64,000 nucleotides of DNA from an uncultured Chlamydiales bacterium (GCA_963826935.1 CAWGYH010000005.1:388981-452980), one strand, 5' to 3'; shown: positions 9,780 through 51,000, numbered from the stretch's first letter. The notes: generated by a model not told the origin, from the sequence alone. Numbers and translations: made by a program.

Positions 9780-12642
<2,863 letters not shown>

Positions 12643-12653
12643 CGGAGACCTGT

Positions 12654-19848: not shown

Positions 19849-21192
19849 TTACCTCAATAAGAAGTCGCGTGCTATGATAAGGTTAATATATGTCTCTTGA
19901 CCGGTGGGGTTTTTGTCGGGGTGATACTTGGCAGCAAGCTTGCGAAAAGCGCTTCCTATCTCATGAGCTGACGCACCCTCTGCTATATTGAGTCTGGCCA
20001 GCGCCTCATGCCGGCTAAGAGCAGGAGGCTCTCTATGCAAAGCGTTCATAAGATAGGGGACAAGCTTCGCATGGATTAAAGAAAAGGCTATAGACTGAAC
20101 AGACATGCTGACAAAAGCGTGGGTGGGTGCGGCTTTCGGGTCTTTATACATGAGATCGACAGCTTTAGCTATGCTTTGGCGAACAGCGCTTGCTGCAACG
20201 TAGGCAATAGCCGACTCTCCAACTGTTTGCATGCTCCATCCTGACAGTAAGCAGTTCATGCCAACAAAGACTGCGGCTTCGACGATGTGATGTATGGCAG
20301 GCAGCAATTGGAGCGTCGTTTTTTCATCTACGTTCAGGTAATCAAGTGCCGACATCCAACGATCTGCCCCCGGCATTACGGCTTGCGAAACAGAATTGAG
20401 AAAGCTATAAGGAGTGCCTATTAAGCCCCACAGGGCAATATCGCGCCCCAAATGAACAGCGGCAGTGGCCACCTTTTCCATGGCAAGGTAAGGCCCCTCC
20501 CTAGGCGTTTGGAGCGAAGGGAAATTTTGCAGGGCCCTTTCGCGGCTTTCTACAATATGGTTTGCAGATTGTACATAGTGGTTATTGGTAATAAAACGAA
20601 GAGCACTCGAAGCGTAGTCTGAAACCCTGCCTATTCTCCCGAGCAGCTGGCTTTCAATGTCTTGAATACGCACTTTCATACGCTGTTTTTTTTCCACAAC
20701 GGTTTGAACCAGCTCTTCGGGAGAAAGAGTTTTTTGATAAAGCTCGATACAGGCCTGAAGTGCCATGCGTGTATGAGCAGCATCGGAAAAATACCCCCGA
20801 AAAAAAAGATCCTTCACCGTGTAAAGAAAATCCTTTAACTTAAGTGCGCTCTGAACGGTATCTTGCTCGAAAAGCGGTTCATTAAGTATCAGCTGACATT
20901 GCCACTGGTCATAGAGCGACAAGCCTTCGGCCTTTTTAACAAGCTCGTCAAATTTCGCCCCGCAATGGCGTTTAACAACAAAACTCTTCTTAAATAGATC
21001 CAACTCCTTGCGCCAGCCTGCCTCTTTTTCGGCCTCTTTTTTGATAACCGAGTCAAAGAGTTCTGTAAGTACCGGGCCAAGGCCTCTCTTCACATGAGCA
21101 ATTATACTGCTCTGCCGCTTAGGTGCTTCTTTCCCGAGCAAGCTACGAAGTTCCTGGGCGAGAGTTGGCTCTCTTTTTTGGATTGCTGACAT
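19849..21192 (-). CDS. Membrane-associated protein with a C-terminal J domain
   Basis: The last ~60 aa, LSRHEALARLNIAEGASAHEIGSAFRKLAAKYHPDKNPTGQETYINLIIARDFLL, contain the HPD motif. Hydrophobic segments lie in the central and C-terminal part. Confidence 0.7.
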   Translation of the reverse strand: MSAIQKREPTLAQELRSLLGKEAPKRQSSIIAHVKRGLGPVLTELFDSVIKKEAEKEAGWRKELDLFKKSFVVKRHCGAKFDELVKKAEGLSLYDQWQCQLILNEPLFEQDTVQSALKLKDFLYTVKDLFFRGYFSDAAHTRMALQACIELYQKTLSPEELVQTVVEKKQRMKVRIQDIESQLLGRIGRVSDYASSALRFITNNHYVQSANHIVESRERALQNFPSLQTPREGPYLAMEKVATAAVHLGRDIALWGLIGTPYSFLNSVSQAVMPGADRWMSALDYLNVDEKTTLQLLPAIHHIVEAAVFVGMNCLLSGWSMQTVGESAIAYVAASAVRQSIAKAVDLMYKDPKAAPTHAFVSMSVQSIAFSLIHAKLVPYLMNALHREPPALSRHEALARLNIAEGASAHEIGSAFRKLAAKYHPDKNPTGQETYINLIIARDFLLR

Positions 21193-25421: not shown

Positions 25422-26474
25422 ATGATTCCATCTGCAACAGCTCGGACCTGTGGTCCATCAAACCCTTCTCTTAATCCTTCTAAAAACGTGGTCGGTCCGA
25501 TCCTTGATCAGACACTTAAAAAACAAGAACTTACGGCACCGGAGCGCTTAGCGTATCATCTCTGTTTAGAGATTAAGGAAGGAAAGGGCCTACTATCCCC
25601 AACGATAGATGCTGTTGACGATAAAGATAAAGTTCATCTTCCTTCTTTAGAAGAACTTGATCCTTTATTTGATCGCCTTGTTTCCCTAGCCTCAGCAACT
25701 AATGGTATCGAATGGCAAATCGCGCACGACCTGAATGATCCTACCCTATTTGGCGCTCTTGTTGAGTGGAGAAAGGAAGTAGAAATGAAACGCGAGGAAA
25801 AGGGGCAAGCTAAATTGCCCGTAAAGTATCATTCAGCACTATCGGGTACATACACTGTTTCAAATGGCTGTGCCAGACATAACATAAAAGTCATTGATAA
25901 TAATGGCGAGCTTTGCATGAGAAATCCATGGGAAATTGCTTTAGAAAGTAATTTACCAGCAGATTTTACAAGGGCCAAACAACTACAACCAAACCCTCCA
26001 AAAACCATCCTATTATCTATAATAAATCACCAAATTGTTCGTGCCATGCAATGGACGTTTAACGATCATGCAAAACTCAGTGTTGAAACTCGAAATTTTG
26101 GAGTACTTCATTGTCTAGTTGAGAGGGCCGCTCCAACTGCTTTTACCGACTCAGGCCCCAATAACATTAATGCTTTGGTTCTCAAAAATTTTGGTAAAAA
26201 TGCAGCCGTAACTTTTGAAGAAGATCCCGAACTACCCACTGCCACAAGCGATCAGATAGCGAGAACAAACCAACAAATCATTGAGATAATGCATTTGACC
26301 CCAGAAGCTGACATCCCCAACGCTCTTGAAACAGCAAATTTTGGTGTTGCCAAGTCTTTAATAACGGCCGCTTCCAAAGAAACACTCTCTGGCGAGTATG
26401 GATCCTTAGCACTTCGGCTTGCAGAAGAAGCAGAAGAGCAGGAGCTGGTTGAAGCGCTTAGAAGAAATCTATAA
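25422..26474 (+). CDS. Hypothetical protein (350 aa)
   Basis: Long ORF with RBS aaggaa upstream. No motif recognised. Confidence 0.55.
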   Translation: MIPSATARTCGPSNPSLNPSKNVVGPILDQTLKKQELTAPERLAYHLCLEIKEGKGLLSPTIDAVDDKDKVHLPSLEELDPLFDRLVSLASATNGIEWQIAHDLNDPTLFGALVEWRKEVEMKREEKGQAKLPVKYHSALSGTYTVSNGCARHNIKVIDNNGELCMRNPWEIALESNLPADFTRAKQLQPNPPKTILLSIINHQIVRAMQWTFNDHAKLSVETRNFGVLHCLVERAAPTAFTDSGPNNINALVLKNFGKNAAVTFEEDPELPTATSDQIARTNQQIIEIMHLTPEADIPNALETANFGVAKSLITAASKETLSGEYGSLALRLAEEAEEQELVEALRRNL

Positions 26475-26619: not shown

Positions 26620-26876
26620 CAAGATTTGTCCTTGATTGAAGTGCTGTTTTAGAGCCCTGTTGAGGGCGACTGTCTTTAGCCCATAGCGACTGATAGGGAG
26701 CTATGGGTAACAAGAAAACATTCTAGGGAGCCCTTAAGGGCGACTGAACCCCCGCGCACGAAGTCAGTCGCCCTGACGGGCTCTTGATTTTTTTCGCCCA
26801 ACCCATAGCTTCCTCTAGTCGCTATGGGCTATAGGCAGTCGCCCTCAAACGGGCTCAAAAACAAAGGACAAATCTT
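26620..26876. repeat. ~255-bp multi-level palindrome
   Basis: Mirrored pairs: aagatttgtcctt / aaggacaaatctt; gagccctgttgagggcgactg..agcccatagcgact / agtcgctatgggct..cagtcgccctcaaacgggctc; and the inner pair gggcgactgaac / gaagtcagtcgccc. Confidence 0.85.
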
Positions 26877-26966: not shown

Positions 26967-27239
26967 TTATTTGACCAAACGTTTTATCTTACTCCAATCA
27001 CTTTCTTTGAACTCTAGTTTCAAGCCAATTCTCATGATCTCCTCATACTGTTCTTGTGAAATTAGGATATTATAAAAAGATATGGTTGCTACAATTTCTT
27101 CAAATGCTAATCCCCATTCTAAGTGCGTTATAAATTCAATCAATAACTCTTCATCATGAGAAGAGAGATGTCCTTTCAATATTGGTAGAAGAGCCATAAG
27201 TTCTTGTTCAATAATTTGAAGTTCTTTTGATAAATTCAT
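26967..27239 (-). CDS. MafI-like immunity protein, type B paralog
   Basis: 90 aa. LIEFITHLEWGLAFEEIVATISFYNILISQEQYEEIMRIGLKLEF.ESDWSKIK fits the fi.hgE.GlA.e.l...l.e..i.Is.e.Y..i..iG..m pattern of MafI-family proteins (from memory). Confidence 0.65.
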   Translation of the reverse strand: MNLSKELQIIEQELMALLPILKGHLSSHDEELLIEFITHLEWGLAFEEIVATISFYNILISQEQYEEIMRIGLKLEFKESDWSKIKRLVK

Positions 27240-27262
27240 ACGTGTTTCTTTTGCCTCGCTCC

Positions 27263-27535
27263 TTACTTATCAATAATTAATTCTTTAAGCGGAAGCCAAT
27301 AGCTTTCTTGATGATTCATATCAGTACCAATTTTTTCTATCAGTTCATAAGATTCTTTTGTGATAGGAATGTCATATTCATAGAGCTGATCTACAAGGGT
27401 TTCATAAGCTACGCCTGATTCACCATACATGATACACTCATCAATAAACTTTATATTATGTTCAGGTAATCCTGATTTATTGCTCTCAAAAAGAGATCTA
27501 ACCATTTTTTCAAATGAATCATCGATTTCTTGCAT
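27263..27535 (-). CDS. MafI-like immunity protein, type A paralog (cognate position to the EndoU tip)
   Basis: 90 aa with DDSFEKMVRSLFESNKSGL...FIDECIMYGESGVAYETLVDQLYEYDIPITKESYELIEKIG. It lies 21 nt downstream of the EndoU-like ORF. Confidence 0.7.
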   Translation of the reverse strand: MQEIDDSFEKMVRSLFESNKSGLPEHNIKFIDECIMYGESGVAYETLVDQLYEYDIPITKESYELIEKIGTDMNHQESYWLPLKELIIDK

Positions 27536-27556
27536 CTTTTCTCACCATATAAAAAT

Positions 27557-27835
27557 TTAAGGAATAGGATATGCGGTAATTATCCCTTCACCGCCAGGCT
27601 CAATGATTGCCCGAATATTTATACCTTCTCGTGCCGCCTCTGCACAAAATCTAATGGGTTTACCACGTTTAGTAAATTGGGATCCAGCTTGACCTGTTTC
27701 CTGTATCCATTTAACGCTTGGATCTGTCACAATATCTGAAATATAATGCATAATTTTATCACGGCTCCAAGATGCAGGAAACGGTGTTTTACTCGGCACT
27801 CCAGGCCAAAGATGACCCCCTTTGCCGATCGGCAT
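27557..27835 (-). CDS. Orphan EndoU-family RNase toxin C-terminal domain (no delivery or repeat region attached)
   Basis: GGHLWPG...KTPFPASWSRDKIMHYISDIVTDP...GINIRAIIEPGGEGIITAYPIP matches the bacterial EndoU toxin pattern (K..FP..W....I...isdv..dp ... G..I.V.i.p.g.I.TAyP) from memory. Confidence 0.7.
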   Translation of the reverse strand: MPIGKGGHLWPGVPSKTPFPASWSRDKIMHYISDIVTDPSVKWIQETGQAGSQFTKRGKPIRFCAEAAREGINIRAIIEPGGEGIITAYPIP

Positions 27836-27902
27836 CCTTGTTACTTCACCATTCTATGTGTCGTTATATTACTATTTATATATTTAATTAAAGCTTTTTG
27901 AA

Positions 27903-28187
27903 TCAATGGTCACCCCTTTTGATCAAATGCTTTATCTTATTCCAATCGTTTTCTTCAAACTCCATTTTTAAACCAACTTTTATAATATCCGCATACTGTT
28001 CTTGTGAAATTGGGATTTTATGTAACTTTATAGTTTCGACAATTTCTTCATATGCCAATCCACACTCACAATGTGTGATAAACTCTCGCAATAGCTTTTC
28101 GTCATCTGTGGTTATATACTCTTTCAAGATAGGTAATAACGCGAGAAGTTCTTGTTCAAGGAGTTGAAGTTCATCTGATAAATTCAT
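27903..28187 (-). CDS. MafI-like immunity protein, type B paralog
   Basis: 94 aa, collinear by eye with 26967-27239 (MNLSDELQLLEQELLALLPILK...FITHCECGLAYEEIVETI...ISQEQYADIIKVGLKMEF). Confidence 0.65.
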   Translation of the reverse strand: MNLSDELQLLEQELLALLPILKEYITTDDEKLLREFITHCECGLAYEEIVETIKLHKIPISQEQYADIIKVGLKMEFEENDWNKIKHLIKRGDH

Positions 28188-28229
28188 ACAATAAACCTTT
28201 TATCATGATTAAGTGATAGGAAAAGCTGA

Positions 28230-28337
28230 ATTGGGGCCTGACATTCGCACATTCAACCAAAAGATGTTGACACTTAGCCTGTTATATGTGGCAATAACAC
28301 TCAAATGTCCGAATTCCAAGCTTGACCCCATTTTTGA
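28230..28337. repeat. ~106-nt element (attggggcctgacattcg...aaatgtccgaattccaagcttgacccc)
   Basis: Nearly identical to 38418-38523. Related hairpins lie at 46826-46883. Confidence 0.85.
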
Positions 28338-28374
28338 TTCATTTTATCATCATTTCTTGTCTGAGCGATTGTTT

Positions 28375-28842
28375 TTATATCTCTTCAGGAAGATTTTTTG
28401 GGTGAAGCCAAACAGCAATAAGCTCTTCTCGGTTTATTGTAGCAACGGAGTTGGGAGCAAATTCAATAAGTAGTTTATCTTTTGTCTCTGGATTTCCGAG
28501 ACAGACCCATCCTTCTTTCCTATTTATATAAATTGGCCATCTACGATCTTCATTTAATCTGTAGGAGATGCCTAAGACGGGTGGTTTATCTAGTAAAGCC
28601 ACTAGACTACCAGCTTTATAACCGTAAGGAAATTGATCTGTTTTTTTGTATGCTATTAATGGACATAAGCCCCATGCATACATGATTTTTCCTTCGTGAT
28701 CTATTTCTAATTGCAGGTCGTTAATCATAATCGATGAATCTCCACTTCCATTGAGTGGCTCTACATCGAATGAAAAATCTTCAGCTTGATAAACGAGAGA
28801 AAAAAATAGGTCATTTTGTGGCTCTTGAATGGTAAATTTCAT
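28375..28842 (-). CDS. Hypothetical protein in immunity-gene position downstream of the Rhs stub
   Basis: 155-aa ORF starting 21 nt after the stub stop. No recognised motif. Confidence 0.5.
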   Translation of the reverse strand: MKFTIQEPQNDLFFSLVYQAEDFSFDVEPLNGSGDSSIMINDLQLEIDHEGKIMYAWGLCPLIAYKKTDQFPYGYKAGSLVALLDKPPVLGISYRLNEDRRWPIYINRKEGWVCLGNPETKDKLLIEFAPNSVATINREELIAVWLHPKNLPEEI

Positions 28843-28863
28843 GTGCGGTCTAGATAGTCTCTC

Positions 28864-29358
28864 CTATTCAAGAGGGTGATCTGAGTCATCGCTGCTTGCC
28901 TGAAAGTCGTTGTCAAAAGCAAGGGCCCCAAGGGAGTCCGGGCAAAACATAGCCTGGTAGGCGTGAGTTACCTCTAAGGGACATAAGTATGGCACTTCAT
29001 TTGTAGCAAGATCCTTCTTTACATACTTGATGCGAGCAGGTTCAAACACTTCTAAGAAATGATGGTGCAAAAAGTTCCAGCCGTTGCGTAAGTTGCCCTC
29101 TTCAAGGCTTGAGCTTGCGTAGCAATGGCCAAGGACATATGCGTCTGGACCGCCTGAGACAATGTCGTCAGAGTTATATTCGCAAAAATCCCCTGTAATT
29201 ACGTTTACGCAGCCATTTACGACGGCTGACGGAAGGGATGTAAGGTTAACAAGTGAGGGGACAGCGTTGTCATCTACTTCTGAGGGTATTGCATGACGTT
29301 CGGCTGCAAGGGGTTGCAGTAGATAAATCGAGAGTAAAAATATGACGACTCTATACAT
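28864..29358 (-). pseudogene. Rhs N-terminal stub (signal peptide + first 164 codons), a duplicate of the rhs1 5' end
   Basis: Nearly identical by eye (about 10 differences in 164 aa) to the first 164 aa of 48031-53757. Similarity ends exactly at ...DHPLE, where TAT in rhs1 is TAG here. More than 100 nt of upstream DNA (ggtgtcacctaatatcgttattacttaagtattaagcaagga...) is also duplicated. Confidence 0.85.
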
Positions 29359-29524
29359 GGTGTCACCTAATATCGTTATTACTTAAGTATTAAGCAAGGA
29401 GCAGATGCGATAAGGACTGCAGTGTCGATAGGTGTAGGGTTAATTCATACAAAAGACGGGTAATTTTTGCAATGTAAAAATAAATCTGAGTAAAGCCTTA
29501 AAGATTCTTAAGATTTTTAAGGCG

Positions 29525-29657
29525 AAGCTTTTTGGAGTGACTCACATAAGTTGAGTCTTTCTCTAGGCCGATTTATCGGCCGTCTGTGTGTGCAAAACGG
29601 CCGATAAATTGGCCTTAAAGAAAGACTCAACTTATATGAGTCACTCCAAAGAGCTTC
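29525..29657. repeat. ~130-bp near-perfect hairpin
   Basis: gaagctttttggagtgactcacataagttgagtctttct.taggccgatttatcggccg is mirrored by cggccgataaattggcc.taaagaaagactcaacttatatgagtcactccaaagagcttc. Confidence 0.85.
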
Positions 29658-30851: not shown

Positions 30852-32198
30852 TCATTCGTGGGAGGGGTAGAGTTTTTTTAGTGCAGCAAGGTGTCTTGCA
30901 ATGAACTTGCTATTAGGTTCAGATATTTGGGCTTTTTTAAAACACGCATAGGCTTTTGCATAATCTGGCTTTTCGCCTTCGACACCTAAAAAGTAAATTT
31001 CCCCAAGGATTGATAAGAGATAGCCATAATCTGGAAGAATCGAGACGGCCTTTTCTAAAAGGGCACGGGCTTTTTTCATATCCTCACAAACACCCTTTCC
31101 GCCAAGCCGAAGGAGATCACCATAATGTGTCAAGGCGTAAGGATTTTCAGGTTCAAGTGCAAGCGCCTCCTCTAGAAGTTCTTGAGCGCGACGTTCGTCA
31201 AGGATAGGATCATAATTTAAGAGCGCTTGTGCAAGTCTAATCTTTACGGCGACAGAATCATCAAAAAACTGAAGTTTTTCTAAAAGCTCTAAACCTCGTT
31301 GAGGGTCTTGTGAAACGCCCTCAAAGTTCCCGAGCAAAAGTCGAGCAAGACCATCGAGGGTAATAGGATTATCTTTTTCAAACTGATAAGAGGCTTCAAA
31401 GAGTTCCCATGAGCGTTTTGGATCATAGGGTATTCCATCTTCTTTGCGGACTAAAAGATCTGCAAGTCCAGCCATAACAAAAGGATCGGAGGGATCAAGC
31501 TCGTAGGCTTTACTTAATAATCTATAGGCCTGCTTTGCATCTCGGGGAAAGTTTGTAGCTCCTGTTCGGTATAAGTCGCCCAGGGAAAAATGAGGTGCTG
31601 GATCTTCTGGGTCTATAGCTATACCACGCTGTAGATAATGGTATGCAGCGCGAGCGTCTTTTGGAACTTCTGGGGCGCCTTTACGTAAAATCTCGCCAAG
31701 TTGGGCAAGCACAAACTCATAGTCAGGCTTACATCGAATAGCCTCCAAATAGTACTCATAGGCCTTTTTAGTGTTTCCAGATGAAAGAGAAATCGTCCCA
31801 AGTCTTGAATAGGCGTATGCATACCCAGGAGCAATTTCAAGTGCGCGATGAAATAAGGATATAGTGCGTGCTTCGTCTTGTCCAATCGCCTTTCCGCGGG
31901 GGTCCCAATAGGTAAGATCTGCAAAGATAACAAAAGCTTGGAGGTTATCTCTACAGGGTGCTAAAAATGGTTTATTGAAGATAAATTCCTGCTGAATCAT
32001 TCGCAGAAGGTCATAAAGGCATGCAAGCTCTCTATTTCTTGCCCAATCAGGAATTCGTTCAATTTCGATGAGATAGTTCAGGATGTCACTTTCAAGGTCT
32101 TCAGAGTTCTTGAGATTTAGGGCGATATCCGTAACGGAAATTTTCTCCCCCAAAAGTGCATATAGGTCATCGCTGTATACATTTTCATCTATAGACAT
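30852..32198 (-). CDS. TPR / Sel1-like repeat protein
   Basis: 448 aa with ~10 tandem ~36-40 aa helical repeats (A..yy..Ai...Pd...a...LG.ly..G...vp.D...A). Confidence 0.7.
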   Translation of the reverse strand: MSIDENVYSDDLYALLGEKISVTDIALNLKNSEDLESDILNYLIEIERIPDWARNRELACLYDLLRMIQQEFIFNKPFLAPCRDNLQAFVIFADLTYWDPRGKAIGQDEARTISLFHRALEIAPGYAYAYSRLGTISLSSGNTKKAYEYYLEAIRCKPDYEFVLAQLGEILRKGAPEVPKDARAAYHYLQRGIAIDPEDPAPHFSLGDLYRTGATNFPRDAKQAYRLLSKAYELDPSDPFVMAGLADLLVRKEDGIPYDPKRSWELFEASYQFEKDNPITLDGLARLLLGNFEGVSQDPQRGLELLEKLQFFDDSVAVKIRLAQALLNYDPILDERRAQELLEEALALEPENPYALTHYGDLLRLGGKGVCEDMKKARALLEKAVSILPDYGYLLSILGEIYFLGVEGEKPDYAKAYACFKKAQISEPNSKFIARHLAALKKLYPSHE

Positions 32199-32403: not shown

Positions 32404-32433
32404 TTGACAATTTAGTGCATTATGCACTAAAAG
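32404..32433 (+). promoter_or_regulatory. Putative promoter with an embedded perfect 19-bp palindromic operator
   Basis: TTGACA (32404-32409), an 18-nt spacer, then TAAAAG (32428-32433). TTAGTGCAT-T-ATGCACTAA (32412-32430) is a perfect 9+1+9 inverted repeat filling the spacer. Confidence 0.5.
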
Positions 32434-32437
32434 TGTT

Positions 32438-32532
32438 GGTGTTGGGCCGAAGTATCTTGGTTCTCGAATATCACTCGGGTGTCTCCGACATTTGTTGGGG
32501 CCCTACCAAGATACAGTTATACGCCCAACAAT
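32438..32532 (+). ncRNA. Y-RNA-like ncRNA candidate 1
   Basis: The terminal stem GTTGGGC (32441-47) pairs with GCCCAAC (32523-29). An asymmetric internal loop (CGAA vs AGTTATAC) follows. The inner stem GTATCTTGGT (32452-61) pairs with ACCAAGATAC (32505-14). A 43-nt internal module closes the structure. The 5' end TGGGCCGAAG resembles the vertebrate Y RNA 5' end GGCUGGUCCGAAG (from memory). It lies directly upstream of rsr. Confidence 0.6.
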
Positions 32533-32545
32533 TATTATGCGTTTC

Positions 32546-32640
32546 GGCTGGGCCGGAACAGATGGTTTATCGGAATTTGAAAGCTCCATCCAATGGAGCT
32601 CAAGTCAACCATTTGTAACTACTATGCCCAGCCATTTTTT
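32546..32640 (+). ncRNA. Y-RNA-like ncRNA candidate 2
   Basis: The terminal stem GGCTGGGC (32546-53) pairs with GCCCAGCC (32626-33) and is followed by A+T6. An internal loop (CGGAA vs TAACTACTAT) follows. The inner stem CAGATGGTT (32559-67) pairs with AACCATTTG (32607-15). An internal hairpin agctccat-ccaa-tggagct is present. The architecture matches candidate 1. Confidence 0.6.
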
Positions 32641-32654
32641 AAGGAGCGTTAATT

Positions 32655-34262
32655 ATGAGCTATACTAAAATTTCAAGCCTATTAGAACATCTAAAATGGC
32701 TCAAGCCACAACCTACCCCCTTGCCAAATCAGATAGCCAATAACGCGGGTGGCTATTATTACAAAATCGATGAATGGGACCAATTAGACCGTTTTCTTAT
32801 TCTTGGAAGTGAATTGGGAACATACTATGTAGCACCTGTAAAATTGACATTAGATAATACACAAGTGATTCAAAACTTGTTACGTATAGATGGAATAAGA
32901 GTTGTAAATAGAATAGTTGAAGTTAGCGCCGCCAATCGAGCACCAAAAAACGATTCAGCGCTTTTTGCTCTAGCCTTAGCTGCCTCTTGCGAAGATCTTA
33001 AAACGCGACAGGCTGCACTATTAGCGCTTCCCAAGGTAGCACGTACAGGAACCTATCTTTTACAATTTGCAGAATATATAAATAATTTACGTGGATGGGG
33101 CCGATCTTTACGCAAGGCGATAGCTAATTGGTTTCTTAATATGCCAGTAGAAGACCTTAGCTTACAGGCTGTTAAATATTATAAACGCGAAGGGTGGTCA
33201 TTATGTGATTTATTGCGTCTATCGCACCCTAAGTGCAAAGAGGATGAAGAGAGACGCGCACTATTTCAATGGATAGTAAAACCAGAAGATGCAACTGCTA
33301 TCAAAAACGCAAGAAGCTTACGTTTAATCGATGGAAAGTACTGTGCCAAAGATGCAACCACAAATCTTGAGATGGCAAATATTGTGCGAAAATATTCACT
33401 ACCTCGAGAAGCGCTGCCCACACCAGCTCTTAACAGCCCAGAAGTATGGGATGCGCTGCTTGTTGACATGCCAATGACAGCAATGATTCGCAATCTTGGC
33501 AAAATGACTAAAGTTGGCTTATTGCAACCTTTTGGCGCGGCGTCTGATTATGTAGCAAAGAGATTACATGACAAAGAACAACTACGCTATGCGCGAATAA
33601 GCCCTTTCCAGCTTTTGCTAGCTCTTCGAGTATATGCTCGTGGTTCTGGGGAGCTAGGCTCGTTGCAATGGACACCAGTAGCCTCTATAGTGCAAGCTCT
33701 TGATAAAGCGTTTGAATCCTCATTTGCTGATGTCAAACCAACAAACAAGCGAATACTTGTAGGTATTGACGTCTCTGGTTCAATGTGTTCTAGTACATGT
33801 GCAGGATCTCCAATTCTTCGCCCTGTTGAAGCTGCAGCTGCAGTGGCCACATTTTTTGTTCGCACCGAAACAAGAGCGCATGTTATGGCATTTGATACTC
33901 AAGCGTATGAGTTTGCCATCACACCAAATCAGCGGCTTGATGATATTACAGAAGCATGTAAACGTTGGGGAGGAGGGACAAATCTTGCCTTGCCAATTAC
34001 CTATGCCATTGAACGCCGTTTAGAAGTCGATGCTTTTGTCATCTTGACTGACAATGAAACTTGGGCTGGCAATCGACATGCTGTTCAGGCTTTAGATGAG
34101 TATCGTCAGCGTATCAACCCCGAAGTAAAGCTTGTAGTAATGGCAACAGCTGCAAATGAAGGTGCGGTATGCGATCCACGTGATCCTCTCTCGTTGGGCA
34201 TTGCTGGATTTGATGCAGCTGCACCCCAAGTTGTTTTAGAGTTCATAAAGGGATCTTGCTAA
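32655..34262 (+). CDS. rsr: Ro60 ortholog (TROVE domain + C-terminal vWA)
   Basis: RBS aaggag. The N-terminal region NNAGGYYYKIDEWDQLDRFLILGSE.GTYY and ...VSAANRAPKNDSALFALALAA are TROVE-like. The vWA MIDAS motif is VGIDVSGSM, followed later by GGGTN...ILTDNETW. Confidence 0.85.
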   Translation: MSYTKISSLLEHLKWLKPQPTPLPNQIANNAGGYYYKIDEWDQLDRFLILGSELGTYYVAPVKLTLDNTQVIQNLLRIDGIRVVNRIVEVSAANRAPKNDSALFALALAASCEDLKTRQAALLALPKVARTGTYLLQFAEYINNLRGWGRSLRKAIANWFLNMPVEDLSLQAVKYYKREGWSLCDLLRLSHPKCKEDEERRALFQWIVKPEDATAIKNARSLRLIDGKYCAKDATTNLEMANIVRKYSLPREALPTPALNSPEVWDALLVDMPMTAMIRNLGKMTKVGLLQPFGAASDYVAKRLHDKEQLRYARISPFQLLLALRVYARGSGELGSLQWTPVASIVQALDKAFESSFADVKPTNKRILVGIDVSGSMCSSTCAGSPILRPVEAAAAVATFFVRTETRAHVMAFDTQAYEFAITPNQRLDDITEACKRWGGGTNLALPITYAIERRLEVDAFVILTDNETWAGNRHAVQALDEYRQRINPEVKLVVMATAANEGAVCDPRDPLSLGIAGFDAAAPQVVLEFIKGSC

Positions 34263-34267
34263 TAGGA

Positions 34268-34501
34268 ATGACCCCTGATGAACTTAAGATAATCGGTGAG
34301 AAATTATTTGGATCTTGGGGTTGGCAAACAAAATTAGCCAAAGCCTTACGAGTTGACGGCAGCACTGTGCGTCGCTGGATTTCTGGCACAACAACGATTC
34401 CTGGGCCTGTAACCGTGGCCCTTGAGTTACTTTTACAAAGGGAAGAGTATGACACCAAAAGAGTTTCATCAACTACTTCAGACATCTCAAGTGAGGCATA
34501 A
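34268..34501 (+). CDS. Small XRE-like helix-turn-helix protein
   Basis: MTPDELKIIGEKLFGSWGWQTKLAKALRVDGSTVRRWISGTTTIPGPVTVALELL is a typical HTH (..aLgvs..TVrRWesG...ip.p). It overlaps the rsr stop region and the predicted rtcB start. Confidence 0.55.
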   Translation: MTPDELKIIGEKLFGSWGWQTKLAKALRVDGSTVRRWISGTTTIPGPVTVALELLLQREEYDTKRVSSTTSDISSEA

Positions 34502-35864
34502 GGAGTTTGAAGACGCTTGGAAGGTATATAAAAGTGAAGGCCCTGAAGCTGCGATCACTTTTGTAAAAAACATCCAAGAGGCTCTTGCTACCTTACGAAA
34601 TACTGCACGCTTACATGAAACACCTGTTTCATATCAGGTCTATGGCCGTGAGTGCATCGATGAAGGCGCCATTAAACAAATGAACGGAGCAATGCGCCTT
34701 CCTGTTGCCCTTGCAGGATCTTTGATGCCTGATGCGCATCACGGATATGGATTACCTATAGGGGGAGTGTTGGCAACAGAAAATGCCGTTGTCCCGTACG
34801 CTGTTGGAGTGGATATAGCTTGTCGTATGATGCTTACTGTCTACCCCGCTGAAGGAAAAATGCTCCAAATGCAAAATTCACCTGAATTTCAGCATTTAAA
34901 GAAAGCTTTGATTGACAATACGCTGTTTGGAGCAGGTGGTAATGGTGTTCATGAGGGTAAGATAGATCACCCCATTCTTGATGAGTCACACTGGAAAAGT
35001 ACTCCCTTACTTTGGTCTCTACGCTTTACAGCAACTCGTCAAATAGGGACAAGTGGAACCGGCAATCACTTTGTGGAGTGGGGGGAACTTGATATAGTAG
35101 AAGAGAATAATCCTCTAAAACTAAAGATAGGAAAATACCTAGCCTTGCTGTCACACAGTGGATCCCGCGGGGTGGGGTTCAAGATAGCAGATTACTATAC
35201 AAAACTTGCAATGAGTCAATTATCCACTCTTGATGATGAGGTAAAGCACCTTGCATGGTTAGGATTAGATACAGAAGCCGGGCAAGAATATTGGGAAGCT
35301 ATGGATCTTGCGGGTCGATTTGCCTCAGCAAATCACCACGTCATCCATGAACGCATCGCTCGTGCAGCTGGATTAACTCCAATTGCCACCGTAGAAAATC
35401 ACCATAATTTCGCATGGCGTGAAAAGATTATGGTAAACGATTGTGAGGTAGAAGCCATAGTCCACCGAAAGGGAGCAACACCTGCAGGGCAAGGAGTTCT
35501 GGGGGTGATTCCTGGAACAATGGCAGACCTTGGGTATGTAGTAGTTGGCAAGGGCTGTAAAGAATCATTACAGTCAGCATCTCATGGCTCGGGTCGCAAG
35601 ATGAGCCGTACTAATGCAATAAAAACAATTACGCAAGAGCAGCATAACGAATATCTTGCAAAGCACGGAATCACGCTCATTGGCGGCGGCCTAGATGAAT
35701 CTCCAGAAGCCTATAAACCAATTACAAAGGTGATCGAAGCTCAACGTGAACTTGTTGATATCATAGGCAGTTTCCAGCCGCGCATAGTTCGCATGGCCGA
35801 TGATTCAGCAAAAAGATCTTTTAAGCCAGCGCCAGCAGGTGTTGTAGATGCTGAAGGGGATTAG
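34449..35864 (+). CDS. rtcB: RNA 3'-phosphate/2',3'-cyclic-phosphate to 5'-OH ligase RtcB
   Basis: MPDAHHGYGLPIGGV, GVDIACRM, GTSGTGNHF, SHSGSRGVG, NHHNFAW, HRKGATP, IPG.M and SASHGSGR motifs. The start is placed at ATG 34449 (RBS gggaagag); the track ORF starts at 34422. Confidence 0.9.
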   Translation: MTPKEFHQLLQTSQVRHKEFEDAWKVYKSEGPEAAITFVKNIQEALATLRNTARLHETPVSYQVYGRECIDEGAIKQMNGAMRLPVALAGSLMPDAHHGYGLPIGGVLATENAVVPYAVGVDIACRMMLTVYPAEGKMLQMQNSPEFQHLKKALIDNTLFGAGGNGVHEGKIDHPILDESHWKSTPLLWSLRFTATRQIGTSGTGNHFVEWGELDIVEENNPLKLKIGKYLALLSHSGSRGVGFKIADYYTKLAMSQLSTLDDEVKHLAWLGLDTEAGQEYWEAMDLAGRFASANHHVIHERIARAAGLTPIATVENHHNFAWREKIMVNDCEVEAIVHRKGATPAGQGVLGVIPGTMADLGYVVVGKGCKESLQSASHGSGRKMSRTNAIKTITQEQHNEYLAKHGITLIGGGLDESPEAYKPITKVIEAQRELVDIIGSFQPRIVRMADDSAKRSFKPAPAGVVDAEGD

Positions 35865-35893: not shown

Positions 35894-36682
35894 ATGCAGA
35901 AAGTAATCAAAATAGGAATTGCCGCGATTTTGTGCCTTAGCGCAATTATTGCAGTATTAAGCCTTCCTCCAATGGCGCAGGATGAAGCATACCATAATTT
36001 TGCAGATACACGAACGATGTTTAGGGTACACTATTTCTGCGATGTGGTAAGCAACTTTTTATTTATCCTATTTGGGATCATGGGACTTCAATACTTGCAG
36101 GGAGGAAGAAAAGTGTTTCTAGGCATACCAAGCCCCGTCGAATGGTGGCTGTGGGTCATATTTTTCCTGGGGGCCATTTTGATAGGGTTAGGCTCAGGCT
36201 ATTACCACTTAAATCCAAATAACAACACACTTGTATGGGATAGACTGCCTATGACCATTTCTTTTATGTCTCTGTTCTCAATTGTTATTTCAGAGCGCTT
36301 TGGGGCAAAATTGGGCGTACTCCTTGCTCCTCTTCTACTTACGATTGGTATTGGCAGTGTGCTTTTTTGGGATTATACAGAATCTTTGGGAAAAGGGGAT
36401 TTACGCCCATATATCTTGGTCCAGTTTCTTCCTCTTATTATCATCCCCTTGATTTTATGGCTTTTTCCAAACCCGGTTCAAGGCTTGCGTTACCTTTGCT
36501 ATACTCTTTGCTGGTACGTGCTTGCCAAAGTGTTTGAACATTTTGACAATGTAATATTTTCTCTTACATATAACATTGTTAGTGGCCACACGCTCAAGCA
36601 CCTTGCGGCTGCAATGGGGGTATATTCCATGCTGCTTTATGTAAACGCAAAACGTATCTACATTCATCGTTACAATGTTTAG
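35894..36682 (+). CDS. Alkaline-ceramidase-like (YPC1/YDC1 superfamily) 7-TM membrane protein
   Basis: YHNFADTR...DVVSNFLFILFG, GSGYYHLNP.N..LVWDRLPM and GHTLKHL motifs resemble the bacterial ceramidase-like family (from memory). Confidence 0.5.
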   Translation: MQKVIKIGIAAILCLSAIIAVLSLPPMAQDEAYHNFADTRTMFRVHYFCDVVSNFLFILFGIMGLQYLQGGRKVFLGIPSPVEWWLWVIFFLGAILIGLGSGYYHLNPNNNTLVWDRLPMTISFMSLFSIVISERFGAKLGVLLAPLLLTIGIGSVLFWDYTESLGKGDLRPYILVQFLPLIIIPLILWLFPNPVQGLRYLCYTLCWYVLAKVFEHFDNVIFSLTYNIVSGHTLKHLAAAMGVYSMLLYVNAKRIYIHRYNV

Positions 36683-36774: not shown

Positions 36775-37079
36775 CTACTTATCGACAATCAATTCCTTAA
36801 GTGGCAGCCAGTAACTTTCATCGAAACTCATATCCATACCTATTTTTCACTCAATTCGTATGATTCCTTTGAAATGGGTGAGCCGTATTCATAAAGTTGC
36901 ACACAAATAGTCTCGTACGCCTCGCCTGATTCTCCGCAGCGGATTAAATCAGCTATATATACAATATCATGGTCTTCTAGTCCTGATTTATTCATCTCAA
37001 ATAGACGTCTCACCATTTTTTCAAAAGAATCATCTTTTAGTAGCTCTTTCATAAAATCTGTCAGCCTATATTGAAACAA
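36775..37079 (-). pseudogene. MafI-like immunity gene, type A, interrupted at a homopolymer
   Basis: The ORF 36840-37079 stops after ...ESYELSEK. The -1 frame continues as KIGMDMSFDESYWLPLKELIVDK* to 36775. The switch lies in the T5 run 36843-36847 (A5 on the coding strand). Confidence 0.7.
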
Positions 37080-37089
37080 TAACTATCAG

Positions 37090-37368
37090 TTATATTTTTA
37101 TTATTAATTCTTTAAGGGAAAGCCAGTAGCTTTCTTCATGTTTCATAGCCATGCCTATTTCAACCGCAAGTTCATATGATTCTTTTGTGATTGGGATTCT
37201 GTATTCATACAGGAGCGGGACTAATGCTTCATAGGCAACGCCTGGTTCGCCATATACGATGCATTCATCAATAAACTTTTTATCATCTTGAGTTAAATTT
37301 GATTTATTGGTCTCAAAAAGTTGTCTAACAGCTTTTACAAATGAATCGTATGTGAAATTGATTTCCAT
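37090..37368 (-). CDS. MafI-like immunity protein, type A paralog
   Basis: FIDECIVYGEPGVAYEALVPLLYEYRIPITKESYELAVEIG...YWLSLKELI. Confidence 0.7.
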   Translation of the reverse strand: MEINFTYDSFVKAVRQLFETNKSNLTQDDKKFIDECIVYGEPGVAYEALVPLLYEYRIPITKESYELAVEIGMAMKHEESYWLSLKELIIKI

Positions 37369-37382
37369 AATGTACCTCCATT

Positions 37383-37514
37383 TTAAGGTATAGGGTGTCC
37401 TGTGATAATGCCTTCACCACCTGGTTCAATTATAACACGTATAGTTATCCCGTCTCTTGCCCCTTCAGCAAGATATCTTAGGCATTGCCCAGAATATTTA
37501 CGCACTTGTGGTTT
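37383..37514 (-). pseudogene. EndoU toxin C-terminal remnant (last ~43 codons only)
   Basis: It reads KPQVRKYSGQCLRYLAEGARDGITIRVIIEPGGEGIITGHPIP* after an in-frame stop. It lies upstream of MafI gene 37090-37368, in the same order as 27557/27263. Confidence 0.7.
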
Positions 37515-37557
37515 TCAAGAAAGAATTGGGGTTTGCCCGTTATCTATGTCGATCTTC

Positions 37558-37830
37558 TTATAAAATTAATTCCTTAAACCGTAACCACTTTCTTTCTTTT
37601 AGGTTCAAGATTTGCCCTACTTCTGCCATCAGATGATAAGATTCTTTAGTTATACGGGAATCATATTCATAGAGCTGATCACACAAATTTTCAAATGCAA
37701 TACCAGATTCTCCATGCTTGATTAGGTCTTCAATAGAATCAATATCATCTTGAGTTAAGAGAGATTTATTAGCTTCGAAAAGATGTTTTATCATATTTTC
37801 TAATATATGAGGTTGTTTTAACATAGTCAC
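37558..37830 (-). CDS. MafI-like immunity protein, type A paralog
   Basis: SIEDLIKHGESGIAFENLCDQLYEYDSRITKESYHLMAEVG...WLRFKELI. Confidence 0.7.
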   Translation of the reverse strand: MTMLKQPHILENMIKHLFEANKSLLTQDDIDSIEDLIKHGESGIAFENLCDQLYEYDSRITKESYHLMAEVGQILNLKERKWLRFKELIL

Positions 37831-37933
37831 TATTAAATCACTTTTTAAAATTGGGGTCAGGCATCACACTTCCAATTTGCCCAAATTGGAAGTTCTTTTG
37901 ATAAATTCATACGTGTTTCCTTTGCCTCGCTCC

Positions 37934-38206
37934 TTACTTATCGACAATCAATTCCTTAAGTGGCAACCAATAATTTTCATCAAAATTGTTATTCTGCCCA
38001 ATTTTTTCACTCAGGTCATAGGATTCTTTTGTAATTGGTGAGTCATGTTCATAGAGTTGAACACATAAAGTTTCATAGGCAACCCCCGATTCACCATATA
38101 TGATACACTCATCAATAAATTTTATATCGTCTTTAGTTAATCCTGATTTATTGGTCTCTAAAAGGAGTCTAACTTCTTTTTCAAATGAATCATCTGTAAT
38201 ATTCAT
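37934..38206 (-). CDS. MafI-like immunity protein, type A paralog
   Basis: DDSFEKEVRLLLETNKSGL...FIDECIIYGESGVAYETLCVQLYEHDSPITKESYDLSEKIG...YWLPLKELIVDK. Confidence 0.7.
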   Translation of the reverse strand: MNITDDSFEKEVRLLLETNKSGLTKDDIKFIDECIIYGESGVAYETLCVQLYEHDSPITKESYDLSEKIGQNNNFDENYWLPLKELIVDK

Positions 38207-38245
38207 AGTTAATCTCGGTAAAAAAAGTTAACAAAGTCGAGTCCA

Positions 38246-38417
38246 TTATGGAATAGGATGGGCAGTGATAATTCCTTCGCCCTCCAGGTTCAATTATAAC
38301 ACGTATGTTTATGCCATCTCTTACCCCTTCGGCAAGATATCGCATATTTGGAAATTGCGATCTACCCTTCCCTGTTTGTGTAACCACTTGATATTTGGAT
38401 CCGTTGCAATATCTGTA
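38246..38417 (-). pseudogene. EndoU toxin C-terminal remnant with a frameshift, 5'-truncated by a repeat element
   Basis: ...RYLAEGVRDGINIRVIIEPGG then +1 nt (ggagggcgaagg), after which GEGIITAHPIP* is out of frame. The upstream end abuts repeat 38418-38523. Confidence 0.7.
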
Positions 38418-38523
38418 ATTGGGGCCTGACATTCGGACATTCCAAAAGATGCTGACACTTAGCCTGCTATATGTGGCAATAACACTCAAATGTCCCAATT
38501 CCAAGCTTGACCCCGTTTTTGAC
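38418..38523. repeat. ~106-nt element, second copy of 28230-28337
   Basis: attggggcctgacattcggacattcc...ctatatgtggcaataacactcaaatgtcccaattccaagcttgaccccgttttt. Confidence 0.85.
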
Positions 38524-38544
38524 TCCGTTTTCATAGCAAACAGC

Positions 38545-44641: not shown

Positions 44642-44845
44642 CTAATATGTATCCAATTGTGTATCCCAATCGCCTCCATGTAGAGGATGATTATCCATTT
44701 CTTTTTTGTATACTTCAAGTTTTTTCTTTCCCTTCGCAATCTGTGCGGGATTATATGGTTTTAACTCATGAATAGTCTTCGTTTCAAAATTAATGTAATC
44801 TATCCTCTTTCCGGTTAGAGTGCGATATTCTTTTTGATAATTCAT
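44642..44845 (-). CDS. Orphan restriction-endonuclease-fold toxin tip (67 aa)
   Basis: GKRIDYINFETKTIHELKPYN gives a D...E.K (PD-(D/E)xK-like) motif typical of Tox-REase tips. It starts in an ATGA overlap with the end of the MafI-like gene. Confidence 0.5.
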   Translation of the reverse strand: MNYQKEYRTLTGKRIDYINFETKTIHELKPYNPAQIAKGKKKLEVYKKEMDNHPLHGGDWDTQLDTY

Positions 44846-45138
44846 GGGGTCCTTTCCTTAAGTGGCAACCAATAATTTTCATTAAAATTCTTATTCAGCC
44901 CAATTTTTTCACTCAGATCATACGATTCTTTTGTAATTGGTGAGTCATGTTCATATAGTTGAATACACAGAGTCTCATACGCAACGCCTGATTCACCATA
45001 TGCTATTAATTCTTCAATAGAATCTATATCGTCATTTGTGAATCCTGATTTGTTGGCCTCAAACAGGTATCTCACCATTTTTTCAAAAGAATCATCAGTT
45101 TCTTCTCCTAAGGGAGTGGAAATCCAGTCTGACCCCAT
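44842..45138 (-). CDS. MafI-like immunity protein, type A paralog with a replaced C-terminal end
   Basis: DDSFEKMVRYLFEANKSGF...IEELIAYGESGVAYETLCIQLYEHDSPITKESYDLSEKIG...YWLPLKE, then RTP* instead of LIVDK*. Confidence 0.65.
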   Translation of the reverse strand: MGSDWISTPLGEETDDSFEKMVRYLFEANKSGFTNDDIDSIEELIAYGESGVAYETLCIQLYEHDSPITKESYDLSEKIGLNKNFNENYWLPLKERTP

Positions 45139-48030: not shown

Positions 48031-51000
48031 TTATTTATGGTTCAAGGCTATTTGTTCAAGTACCTTCGAATATTCATTACTTAAACATCCATGCTGAGAG
48101 CAGGGGATACGTATGGTACCTACCATCTGTAAATTCCCTTTTCCTAAAATTCCATTATACGTCATGCCCAATGGATCGGAAATAACCGATACAAAGTCTG
48201 ACCAGCCAGAATGATTGGCGGTACCATGGAAGCCATGTTTGTTATTAAATATTTTAGTAGAAGCAATGCTTTCTATGAATAAGCGTTTTCGCTGTTCAGG
48301 TTCAAGCATACGCGAAGCCAGATAAGTTGTTTGACCACCATTACTATGAGGTACAATGAGTGTATAGGCGTTTTCGCCGTGAGATTTGGCTTTGGTTGCA
48401 AGTTGCTCTAAAGCTCCAGCAACCACATTTTCATTTTCCGTTGATCCTCCTATCATGTTATAAGCAGCTTTTAGCACATCCATAAGCAAACCTCGCGTTG
48501 GTGTATATATAAGATACATGTCCGGATGGTTTCCTCCAAAGTAATCTTTAAGACCATTCGTATTTTCGACTGCTTCCTCATAATCGCAATTAAGCCCAGT
48601 TGACACAGCTGCAGCAACGCAATTTTTTGATGTTGGGTTGCCATCGGCAACTTTATAGAGTCCGGCTGGCTTACGTTTCTTTGTAGAGGCCCCCCTGGCT
48701 TTACGAAGTTTGTCTTCAACACTATCATTCCATGATCCAAAATGAAAACTATGATGTACAACTAGCTCGAAAGTTCTGCAACATACATATTTTAACCCAT
48801 CCTTCGCACTGCGTACTCCGTCTGACAACAAATCACGCAAGCGATCGGTAACATTTCGATCAGCTGTTTCATTGTCAAGAAGCCCGTAGGGATCGAAACG
48901 GGTCATGGGACTATTGAGGCAGTAAGCATAAAGGTTTGGGCCGGCTTTTAGGCCCAAGGGATCTTGGGTGAGCCATTTGCCAAGGCTGGGGTCGTAGTAG
49001 CGGCGGCCAAAGTAGACTAGGCCCGTTTCGGGATCTACTCGTTTGCTCGAGAAGCGCCAAGGGCTTAGAGGATTTTCTGGGGTCGTTTCTTGGCCGAAGG
49101 CGTCGTAGTGATAAGTTTCTACGGGGGTGCCGTTGGTGTTTAGGAGAAGGGTTATGTTGCCTTGGCGGTCGTGTAGGGGAATATAGGTGGTGCCATTTAA
49201 CTCTAGGGCTACGCTTGCGCTGATTTCGGCGCCGAGGCCTTCGCCTAGGGCGCGAAGTTCGGTGATACTGTTGGCACTATCTAGCGTGCCGATTTCGTTG
49301 TCTTGGGCGTAGAGGTAGCGTTCGGTACTGTTTTCTTGAGGGCAATGCTTTGTTAGGCGGCGGTTAAAGGCGTCGTAGCTGTAAGTATAACGCTTATCTC
49401 CCGCTCTTACTTCTATGAGGCGATCGAGGGCGTCGTACTTGTAGGTGGTGCTGTCTTGGCTTAGGCGGTTGCCTCTTTTGTCGTAGCTATAGGCGTGCTT
49501 GCTGTCTGATAGAACGGAGTGGAGGCTGTTGACGTTGTATGTCGCATCATCCTTTTGGAGGCGATTGAAGAGAGAGTCGTAGTTGTAGGTATGGCGTACC
49601 GGGCCTGTTTCTGAGGTAAGCTGCGATAGGAAGTCGTAGCTGAAGGTGCGGTTTGAGGAGCTGCCCAGGGCTTTTGTGTCTAGGGTGAGGAGGTTGCCTA
49701 CAGCATCAAAGCTGCTTTTTTGCTCAAATTGGGCATGGAAGATGTTGGTATTGCGGCCCAGTTTATCGTGGTTGAAGGTGAGGGTGCCGGCTGATTCCGG
49801 AAGGGCTGTTTTTTTGGCAAAGCCTGAAAGGTCACGCTCAAGGGTTTGATGTTTGTAAAGTTCTTTGCCGCTAGCATCCAGTCGTTGGATAGAGTCGAGG
49901 AAGGCAGAGTGGCTGTAGGCTACTTTTGAGCTGTCCGGGAGGGTAAGCTCTTTTACTCTTCCAGCTTTGTCGTAGGTATAAGTAACCGTGAGGCCGGTTT
50001 CTAGGGTTTCTGAGGTAAGCTCGCCAAAGCTGTTGTAGCTGCGGGTGGTTTTTTTACCTGTAGAGTTGTTTGTGACTTCTAGGATTCTGTCGGAGGCGTC
50101 GTAGCTATAGCTATAGTCTATGCTGTGGTCATCTGAGTAAAAGTGCTGAAGCCTGCCCTTTTTGTCGTAGGTGTGGCTGAGGATGGTGCCGTCGGCATGG
50201 GTGATGGTTTCCAGCTCGCCCTGGCGGTTGTAGACATAGCTCGTAGTTTTTTCTTCCGGGGTATTTGCGGCCTCTTTAATGGATGTGAGGTGGTTGTTGC
50301 TGTAGTAAAATAGAGTAACTATATTTTTAACACTATTCTCTGAGATGGCGTTTTCATCTATTCTTACGCAGTTATTGGCCTCGTCGTAAAAAAGCTCCTT
50401 TTTGGCAATAAGTTGATGCATAGGATCGTAGCGGTGCACTTCGGAAAGGTTGGCGCGGGCATCATATATCTCTTCTAGAGTACAGCCTCGGGCATCAATA
50501 GTTTCTTTGCGAAGGACCGTTTGGCCATGTTTATTTATATGATCGTGATAATATCGAAAGAAGGTTTTATTGCCTTCTGCATCGGTGTGTTCTTCCACAA
50601 GGCCGTGAGCGTTGTAGCGTGCCTCTGACCTTGCCTCTTGGCCGTCGATGCTCGAGATGCTGCTGGTTTGATTGTCGGCAACATCATAGCCATAGAGTTT
50701 GAAGGAGCGAAGCTCAGATGTATGGTCAAAGAGTTTTTCTTGCACAAGGCGATGGTGGGGGTCATATTCGTAACTTTTTGCTATATAGCCTTCAGCATCA
50801 AGGTGGGTGCGCGCTTCACGCATGCGTCCGTGGGAGTCGTAGGTGAAGGTTGTTTTTCTCTCTTCTTGTTCTTTGGATATTTGCCTTCCTGCTTCATCGT
50901 AGCGAAAGGTTACCTTTTCTCCCGTTGGCCCTATTGTCATCACTGGGTGGAAGCTGTTGTAAGCTAGTTCTTGTCGGGCTAAAAGCTCTCTATCCATAAA

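Follow-up and report, generated by a model that had tools for sequence, protein, structure and literature searches.

Bacterial operons that combine the Ro60 orthologue Rsr, Y RNAs and the RNA ligase RtcB are already known (PMC7790460, PMC4201824). The rsr-yrlBA-rtcBA operon of Salmonella Typhimurium (Chen et al. 2013; Hughes et al. 2020, PMC7790460) carries a Ro60 orthologue, two Y RNAs and RtcB on one strand, with a presumed role in RNA surveillance and repair. The same parts, with the same presumed role, were found in a 64,000-nucleotide stretch of DNA from an uncultured Chlamydiales bacterium (GCA_963826935.1, CAWGYH010000005.1:388981-452980; hereafter the window), where a compact (+)-strand operon consisting of a promoter, two Y-RNA-like hairpins, rsr, a helix-turn-helix (HTH) gene, and rtcB fills positions 32404 to 35864. 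Unlike the Salmonella operon, the window operon has the order Y-Y-rsr-HTH-rtcB, with the Y RNAs first and lacking a tRNA-like domain, and it has no RtcA (no such domain among all scanned open reading frames [ORFs] of the window), no RtcR/CARF sigma-54 activator (no RtcR gene, CARF-AAA+-HTH, was found flanking the operon), and no sigma-54 promoter (no match to TGGCAC-N5-TTGCW upstream of the operon); it has instead a small predicted XRE-type repressor and a palindromic operator in a sigma-70-like promoter. What is new here is this pair of HTH repressor and operator, which marks a family of Ro60/Y-RNA cassettes, the Rsr/Y-RNA/RtcB operons themselves being known. In a literature search, no description was found of the XRE-type repressor/operator pair of this cassette family or of transcription starting at the Y RNA. 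An initial annotation of the window had named the same module parts, all of which were found where it had placed them, and its gene and RNA identifications proved correct by Pfam, the ORF map, and a covariance model. Two unrelated, independent Logan assemblies carry the module with identical proteins, indicating that the locus is not an assembly artefact.

The evidence that carries the finding is the joint occurrence of the HTH gene and a palindrome in related loci from other genomes (80 loci for rsr, 160 for rsr and rtcB, and 249 fetched in all). The HTH gene lies directly 3' of rsr in 20 of the 80 rsr loci (tblastn). When the palindrome TAGTGCA-N3-TGCACTA was scored upstream of rsr with up to two mismatches allowed, it was present in 19 of these 20 loci versus 0 of the 60 loci without the HTH gene, and the sole HTH locus without it is one that has no upstream DNA. 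The exact palindrome occurs in 26 of the 249 fetched loci, and every carrier is an HTH locus. This pattern strengthens the proposal, made in the initial annotation, that the unit is controlled by an XRE-type HTH protein. By co-occurrence, the palindrome would be the cognate operator in the HTH gene's own promoter, and binding of the protein to it is predicted.

In the window, the operator is the perfect palindrome TAGTGCA-TTA-TGCACTA (32413-32429, strandless), which overlaps the promoter spacer and the -10 element. As read from its sequence, the promoter is sigma-70-like: the -35 element TTGACA (32404-32409, +), whose first base is the start of the operon as reported here, is followed 17 nt further on by the presumptive -10 element, the hexamer CTAAAA (32427-32432, +), a position occupied by CTAAAT or CTATAT in relatives. 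TTGACA followed by TAGTGCA-N3-TGCACTA is common to the upstream regions of HTH loci, and in related loci TTGACA- or TTGC-type hexamers precede the palindrome with a spacing equal to that in the window. A generic promoter/terminator scan did no better than chance and failed to pick up the promoter of the operon. The distance from the operator end to the first Y-RNA match is 9 to 10 nt in the window and in the related loci L243, L248, and L249, and this fixed spacing implies that transcription probably starts at the Y RNA 5' end. The operator pattern has a single site in the whole 64-kb window, which means that no toxin or immunity gene belongs to a shared regulon. In the Parachlamydiales loci L004 and L244, rtcB is a separate unit with a second operator in front, and in L001 and L003 an operator adjoins a divergent rtcB paralogue; these extra operators place RtcB in the regulon even outside the operon.

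The HTH gene (34268-34501, +) encodes a 77-residue XRE/Cro-type protein, identified from gene calls in independent assemblies and from its AlphaFold2 fold, and predicted to be an autorepressor. The AlphaFold2 model (pLDDT 89) has a four-helix XRE-type fold, and its Foldseek neighbours, with TM scores of 0.6 to 0.79, are HigA2, Aca2, P22 c2, C.Kpn2I, and 434 Cro. HigA2, Aca2, P22 c2, and C.Kpn2I are dimeric proteins that repress their own promoters. The window protein resembles such XRE/Cro-type autorepressors of mobile modules, restriction-modification C-proteins among them, in its HTH fold, in the location of its gene inside the operon that it putatively controls, and in a palindromic operator that overlaps the core promoter; it is unlike them in that sequence similarity is negligible and the cargo is an RNA-repair ribonucleoprotein (RNP) rather than a toxin, an anti-CRISPR, or a restriction enzyme. 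A PDB sequence profile gave lambda Cro as the best match (E 0.15). The family numbers 75 protein clusters, none of them named, and has a nearly invariant core of 58 amino acids; identity among HTH proteins reaches 83% where that of Rsr is 69% (tblastn). The protein also matches two phage families of unknown function, phrog_3626 (1e-12) and phrog_12690 (4e-11), and has unannotated relatives with 40 to 49% identity in Xanthomonas OP2-like, Mannheimia, and Edwardsiella phages; these sequence matches suggest that it may descend from a phage Cro-like regulator. An ImmA/IrrE-type partner protease was considered, and none is encoded within the module.

The window RNAs share several traits with bacterial Y RNAs such as YrlA/YrlB and Yrn1/Yrn2 (Chen et al. 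2014, PMC4201824): their genes lie no more than 2 kb upstream of rsr, a GNCGAA-like motif marks the point where the basal helix meets the internal loop, and each species has at least one RNA of the hairpin type. The 220 nt upstream of rsr form two long hairpins on the same strand, both of the short hairpin type: Y RNA 1 (32439-32531, +), with the Ro-binding-like motif GCCGAAG and no tRNA-like arm, and Y RNA 2 (32545-32634, +), with the variant motif GCCGGAA. Their fold z-scores are -3.2 and -5.8, respectively. Each combines a basal helix of 8 to 9 bp with an asymmetric internal loop, which opens with CCGAAG or CCGGAA, and with a second helix, after which comes UUCUCG or UUAUCG. The covariance model R1 drew solely on Rsr-linked hairpins found in other genomes, the window being left out of the training set; it scored Y RNA 1 at 30.4 bits (E 7e-4) and Y RNA 2 at 21.5 bits (E 0.037), and these were exactly the two matches on both strands of the window. 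In the training alignment of 29 short hairpins taken from rsr loci, 6 of the 9 basal-helix pairs have undergone compensatory change. The two-helix, asymmetric-loop design is common to Rsr-linked RNAs in dozens of genomes, and across the 80 rsr loci same-strand matches to the motif GGSYCG-N6-13-KDTTHYCD are packed 27 times more densely into the 1.2 kb upstream of rsr than elsewhere. A third match to the motif, at 26125, lies inside an ORF, has no covariance-model match, and was taken as chance.

The GCCGAAG of Y RNA 1 fits the GNCGAAN0-1G motif that has been linked to Rsr binding (Chen et al. 2014, PMC4201824). Both hairpins thus have the attributes of bacterial Y RNAs, namely a position next to rsr, a basal helix, and a GNCGAA(N)G-type motif, with Rsr binding putative. 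They do not belong to the YrlA subclass: unlike YrlA, both lack the T-arm and D-arm mimicry that many alphaproteobacterial cassette relatives have, their apical regions being without the GGTTCGAATCC and GTAGCTCAG present in relatives, and neither ARAGORN nor Rfam gave a tRNA-like match in the hairpins. At the gathering score Rfam reported nothing in the window, but it was also blind to evident tRNA-like YrlA-type copies in related loci, so that its silence is uninformative; the R1 model was built for this reason. In E-value mode, Y RNA 2 weakly matched nematode sbRNA, a Y-RNA homologue (E 0.097). The GC-rich basal helix of Y RNA 2 is followed by the T-run ATTTTTT (GCCCAGCCATTTTTT, 32626-32640), which looks like a leaky terminator or a 3'-end signal; a leaky terminator may set the ratio of Y RNA to rsr mRNA. 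A similar helix and T-run accompany the last Y RNA before rsr in L004 (about 3815-3830) and L011.

Downstream of the hairpins, rsr (32655-34262, +) is preceded at 7 nt by the ribosome-binding site AAGGAG and encodes a Ro60 orthologue, in which a TROVE ring (Pfam TROVE, 7e-42) is followed, as is characteristic of Ro60, by a vWA domain (vWA_Ro60, 2e-47) with the MIDAS motif DVSGS, the two Pfam matches exceeding their cut-offs by a wide margin; 129 relatives of rsr were found in genome contigs. The rtcB gene (34449-35864, +) encodes a ligase of 471 amino acids that joins 3'-phosphate or 2',3'-cyclic-phosphate ends to 5'-OH ends (Pfam RtcB, 2e-76) and has an N-terminal extension of about 55 residues. 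Its motifs DAHHGYG, DIAC, GTGNHF, HSGSRG, HHN, and HGSGR align with PDB 2epg and with P. horikoshii RtcB, and in the alignment to solved RtcBs the metal-binding Cys/His residues and the GMP-accepting His are conserved. Its closest relatives are from Chlamydiae, with 64 to 69% identity. The start codons of the HTH gene and rtcB were set from homologues and two independent gene calls; the HTH ATG lies 6 nt past the rsr stop, and the HTH and rtcB reading frames overlap by 53 nt. PADLOC gave zero matches for the proteins of the module or the surrounding island, and the operon is accordingly not classed as a known anti-phage system. A ceramidase-like membrane gene (35894-36682) was rejected as a further operon member, being conserved in no relative.

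Among relatives, the ligase partner varies: RtcB may be encoded downstream, upstream, or divergently, or may be replaced by a Pnkp-type enzyme or by none. The initial annotation overstated the novelty of the Ro60-Y RNA-HTH-RtcB unit, since locus L248, from a bacterium with an ATP/ADP translocase, also has the order rsr-HTH-rtcB, with identities of 68%, 80%, and 69%, respectively. Other arrangements are rtcB-Y-rsr-HTH in Parachlamydia (L243) and in the Parachlamydiales locus L244, rsr-HTH only in Legionella donaldsonii, and, in a Rhodospirillaceae metagenome-assembled genome (MAG; L249), rsr-HTH followed by a Pnkp-like kinase-phosphatase-RNA ligase fusion (10201-12429) in place of RtcB. That one RNA end-healing/sealing enzyme has taken the place of another supports a role of the cassette in RNA repair. 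In 'Chlamydiales bacterium 38-26' (L082, 7933-9882), a close RtcB homologue follows two other genes, of which one encodes an RNA-ligase-like protein containing EKLDGEN and the other appears HD-domain-like from its sequence.

The HTH cassette recurs in Chlamydiae, Legionella, and many alphaproteobacteria. Its hosts (L001-L024 and L243-L249) include Parachlamydiales, Legionella donaldsonii, and Rhodospirillales-type MAGs, and free-living Hyphomonadaceae and Methylobacteriaceae are among the carriers. This host range suggests horizontal spread, possibly among bacteria with common protist hosts. The best relatives of the DnaA protein encoded in the window are from MAGs of Chlamydiae (49%) and Simkaniaceae (44%), which agrees with the earlier description of the host as chlamydia-like; the DnaA sequence suggests that the host branches deeply within the Chlamydiota.

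The operon lies between two MafI/EndoU arrays and near Rhs genes, as had been described, although the EndoU pieces there are remnants. Rhs/Maf-type loci with EndoU tips and MafI genes are represented in intact form by L247, a locus of another MAG, to which the flanking MafI genes (NF033691) and EndoU tip fragments are 63 to 70% identical. The left array (26967-29358, -) contains three MafI genes (26967-27239, 27263-27535, and 27903-28187; -; NCBIfam MafI), an EndoU C-terminal remnant (27557-27835, -) covering profile positions 64 to 128 of 129 of Pfam EndoU_bacteria (PF14436), and a 164-residue copy of the Rhs1 N-terminus (28864-29358, -) that is 94.5% identical to Rhs1 residues 1 to 164. This copy at the array start identifies the left array as a decayed rhs locus and is a sign of rhs-mediated rearrangement. 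The right array (36840-38534, -) contains further MafI genes (36840-37079, partial; 37090-37368; 37558-37830; and 37934-38206; -; NCBIfam MafI) and degraded, frameshifted EndoU remnants (about 37389-37481 and 38190-38534; -), and another MafI gene (44842-45138) lies downstream of Rhs1. Seven of these MafI paralogues of about 90 amino acids score above the NF033691 cut-off (31.4-60.6 bits versus 31), and an eighth is partial.

The three EndoU remnants alternate with MafI genes, and all are truncated or frameshifted; by alignment, the best of them starts at GGH and lacks the histidine motif KHILFGE that lies ahead of this point in the intact domain of L247, and no complete PF14436 domain with both catalytic His motifs was found in the window. 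Unlike in L247, the EndoU tips are orphan and truncated, and the full-length Rhs proteins, Rhs1 (48031-53757, -) and a second one (58433-63658, +), carry other C-terminal domains, neither tip being EndoU. Toxin-related accessory DNA makes up about 40% of the window. Past the DPxGL motif, neither Rhs tip (48031-48900, -, and 62700-63658, +) matches Pfam; an HSNGG motif in the Rhs1 tip recalls a lipase/esterase serine, and Rhs1 is followed downstream by a long series of unannotated ORFs, among them one for a DUF4304 protein.

We consider it probable that the locus is a self-contained, autorepressed Ro60/Y-RNA/RtcB operon whose place among toxin remnants is incidental. From co-occurrence and fold we infer that the repressor binds and represses: a dimer of the XRE/Cro-type protein on TAGTGCA-N3-TGCACTA, between -35 and -10, would shut down its own operon. 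When active, the sigma-70-type promoter would fire at or near the Y RNA 1 5' end, as the fixed spacing suggests; both hairpin Y RNAs would then be cut out or terminated, the stem and U-run possibly forming the end of Y RNA 2, and read-through would yield an rsr-HTH-rtcB mRNA, whose genes may be translationally coupled through the 6-nt gap and the 53-nt overlap seen in the sequence. As in their families generally, the task of Rsr and the Y RNAs would be to deal with RNAs that are damaged or misfolded, and that of RtcB to reseal 2',3'-cyclic-phosphate/5'-OH breaks. An operon that carries its own regulator does not need the RtcR/sigma-54 system of enterobacteria, which suits a mobile module. The MafI/EndoU-remnant arrays and the cassette would be co-resident accessory DNA in an rhs-rich, rearrangement-prone region.

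The same anatomy would also serve if the HTH protein were a signal-responsive sensor released by RNA damage (RNA fragments, free Y RNA, Rsr, or RtcB), that is, a compact analogue of RtcR, and we regard this as a tentative possibility. The extreme conservation of the 58-residue core takes in a WGWQ motif and an N-terminal helix, both of them additions to the minimal HTH, which suggests an extra interaction surface. Aca2, which binds RNA as well as DNA, is among the closest structural neighbours. Other rsr/rtcB operons are damage-induced (PMC7790460). On the other side, neither a ligand-binding domain nor a partner gene is visible, and negative autoregulation alone accounts for the architecture. 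It is improbable that the hairpins are a mere structured leader or attenuator of the rsr mRNA and not stable Ro-bound Y RNAs, despite their location in the 5' leader, the resemblance of the Y RNA 2 end to an intrinsic terminator, the missing Rfam Y_RNA match, and the missing tRNA-like arm: the GNCGAA-type motif is tied to Rsr binding and hairpin-type second Y RNAs, YrlB and Yrn2, are documented (PMC4201824), while the two-helix design is Rsr-linked in dozens of genomes and an independently built model finds the hairpins.

The initial annotation took the juxtaposition with the toxin arrays as a sign that the module is a generic back-up immunity, in which RtcB, helped by Rsr and Y RNAs, would reseal tRNA or rRNA cut by Rhs-delivered EndoU and thereby complement MafI. 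EndoU cleavage leaves 2',3'-cyclic phosphate and 5'-OH, and RtcB seals such ends, so the chemical premise holds as established knowledge and repair of EndoU damage by the module remains biochemically plausible. The notion of RNA repair as a counter to RNase toxins is already known, and is reportedly treated in a 2016 computational survey of RNA-repair systems in conflicts by Burroughs and Aravind. In other systems, RtcB1 mends tRNAs cut by toxins in vitro, and RtcB2-PrfH undoes the damage done by ColE3/CdiA-CT in vivo (PMC9304027). RtcB2-PrfH (PMC9304027, PMC9223846) is, like the window operon, an RtcB-centred module, with shown indirect immunity against RNase toxins; unlike it, the window has no PrfH, an RtcB of a different clade, and no known toxin specificity. 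The module does sit between two MafI arrays, and a gene for a HicA RNase toxin lies 3.5 kb from the L249 cassette. Nonetheless, tblastn with all window ORFs together with the MafI hidden Markov model detected Rhs, MafI, or EndoU relatives within 10 kb of rsr or rtcB in 0 of the 160 loci, and none were present in five Pfam-annotated HTH-cassette contexts, which included two from Parachlamydiales, Parachlamydia being represented. The proposed co-occurrence of rsr/rtcB with EndoU/MafI cassettes was therefore not seen at neighbourhood scale. In the reverse direction, the intact Rhs-EndoU with adjacent MafI in L247 has no rsr or rtcB nearby (one long contig, n=1), and a related-locus search with a single MafI protein returned no relative. 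Moreover, truncation has left the EndoU pieces of the window without the first catalytic histidine motif, its one operator leaves the toxin and immunity genes outside the regulon, and adjacency is cheap where so much of the DNA is toxin-related. The juxtaposition is thus not supported as a sign of repair back-up, which we consider unlikely to be what maintains the module; among the loci compared, the toxin-flanked position is peculiar to this genome and probably incidental, and it is best explained by co-residence in a region rich in accessory DNA, with no indication of dedicated coupling. Highly speculative is the combined proposal that the HTH protein and operator define an uncharacterised mobile class of Ro60/Y-RNA cassettes with interchangeable RtcB and Pnkp ligases, with a repressor that is a compact RNA-damage sensor, serving here as a broad-spectrum back-up against Rhs-exchanged tRNase toxins.

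Several points weigh against the autorepressed operon with an incidental location. The HTH Pfam matches (HTH_3, YdaS, and Cro) all fall below the cut-off, and no Foldseek match of the HTH model reaches E 0.001; the transcription start, the processing of the Y RNAs, their binding by Rsr, and the repression are each predicted. For the hairpins, the covariance score of Y RNA 2 is only E 0.037, the motif used for the density comparison was derived after inspection of some of the loci later counted, and the training hairpins were picked for complementary ends, which makes the basal-helix statistics partly circular. With regard to the toxins, absence within 10 kb leaves room for co-occurrence elsewhere in the genomes, many of the compared loci are short contigs, and the reverse test rests on a single informative locus.

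Other features were observed in the window. A TPR/Sel1 protein gene (30852-32198) is divergent from the repair operon, and it is one of a set of effector-like proteins that also includes a Ser/Thr kinase-FGE-sulfatase fusion, a Fic-domain protein, and a C-terminal DnaJ protein (7398-9209, 18038-19804, and 19849-21192, respectively). Effector-like proteins of these kinds are associated with intracellular bacteria. Two long inverted repeats mark the outer borders of the left MafI/Rhs-remnant array, one at 29524-29657 (51-nt arms, 86% complementarity, 32-nt loop) and one at 26645-26863 (47-nt arms, 89% complementarity, 125-nt loop), and neither has further copies in the window. In the origin region, gyrB is broken up over five or more successive ORFs, with HATPase_c, DNA_gyraseB, and Toprim among the pieces, and gyrA over two (12832-13263 and 13260-15194), the whole, including gyrA, spanning 10138-15194 (+). 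The split genes sit in an otherwise intact dnaA-dciA-gyrB-gyrA-tmk region, where GC reaches 0.50 to 0.52; either they are pseudogenes, belonging to a second copy of gyrase, or the assembly has local indel errors here.

The idea of toxin defence is attractive, but the genomic evidence presented here does not favour it; the significance of the locus lies in its control. To our knowledge, the switching on of Ro60/Y-RNA systems in bacteria is known only for the enterobacterial RtcR/sigma-54 operon. The cassette family described here points to a different and very simple control logic, consisting of a predicted repressor with a conserved core of 58 amino acids and a 17-bp operator just ahead of the first Y RNA. 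Searches for such cassettes and for their Y RNAs, which are now missed by Rfam, can use the operator and HTH gene together as a sequence signature, and the repressor/operator pair offers a direct way to test when and why Ro60 RNPs are put to use in bacteria.

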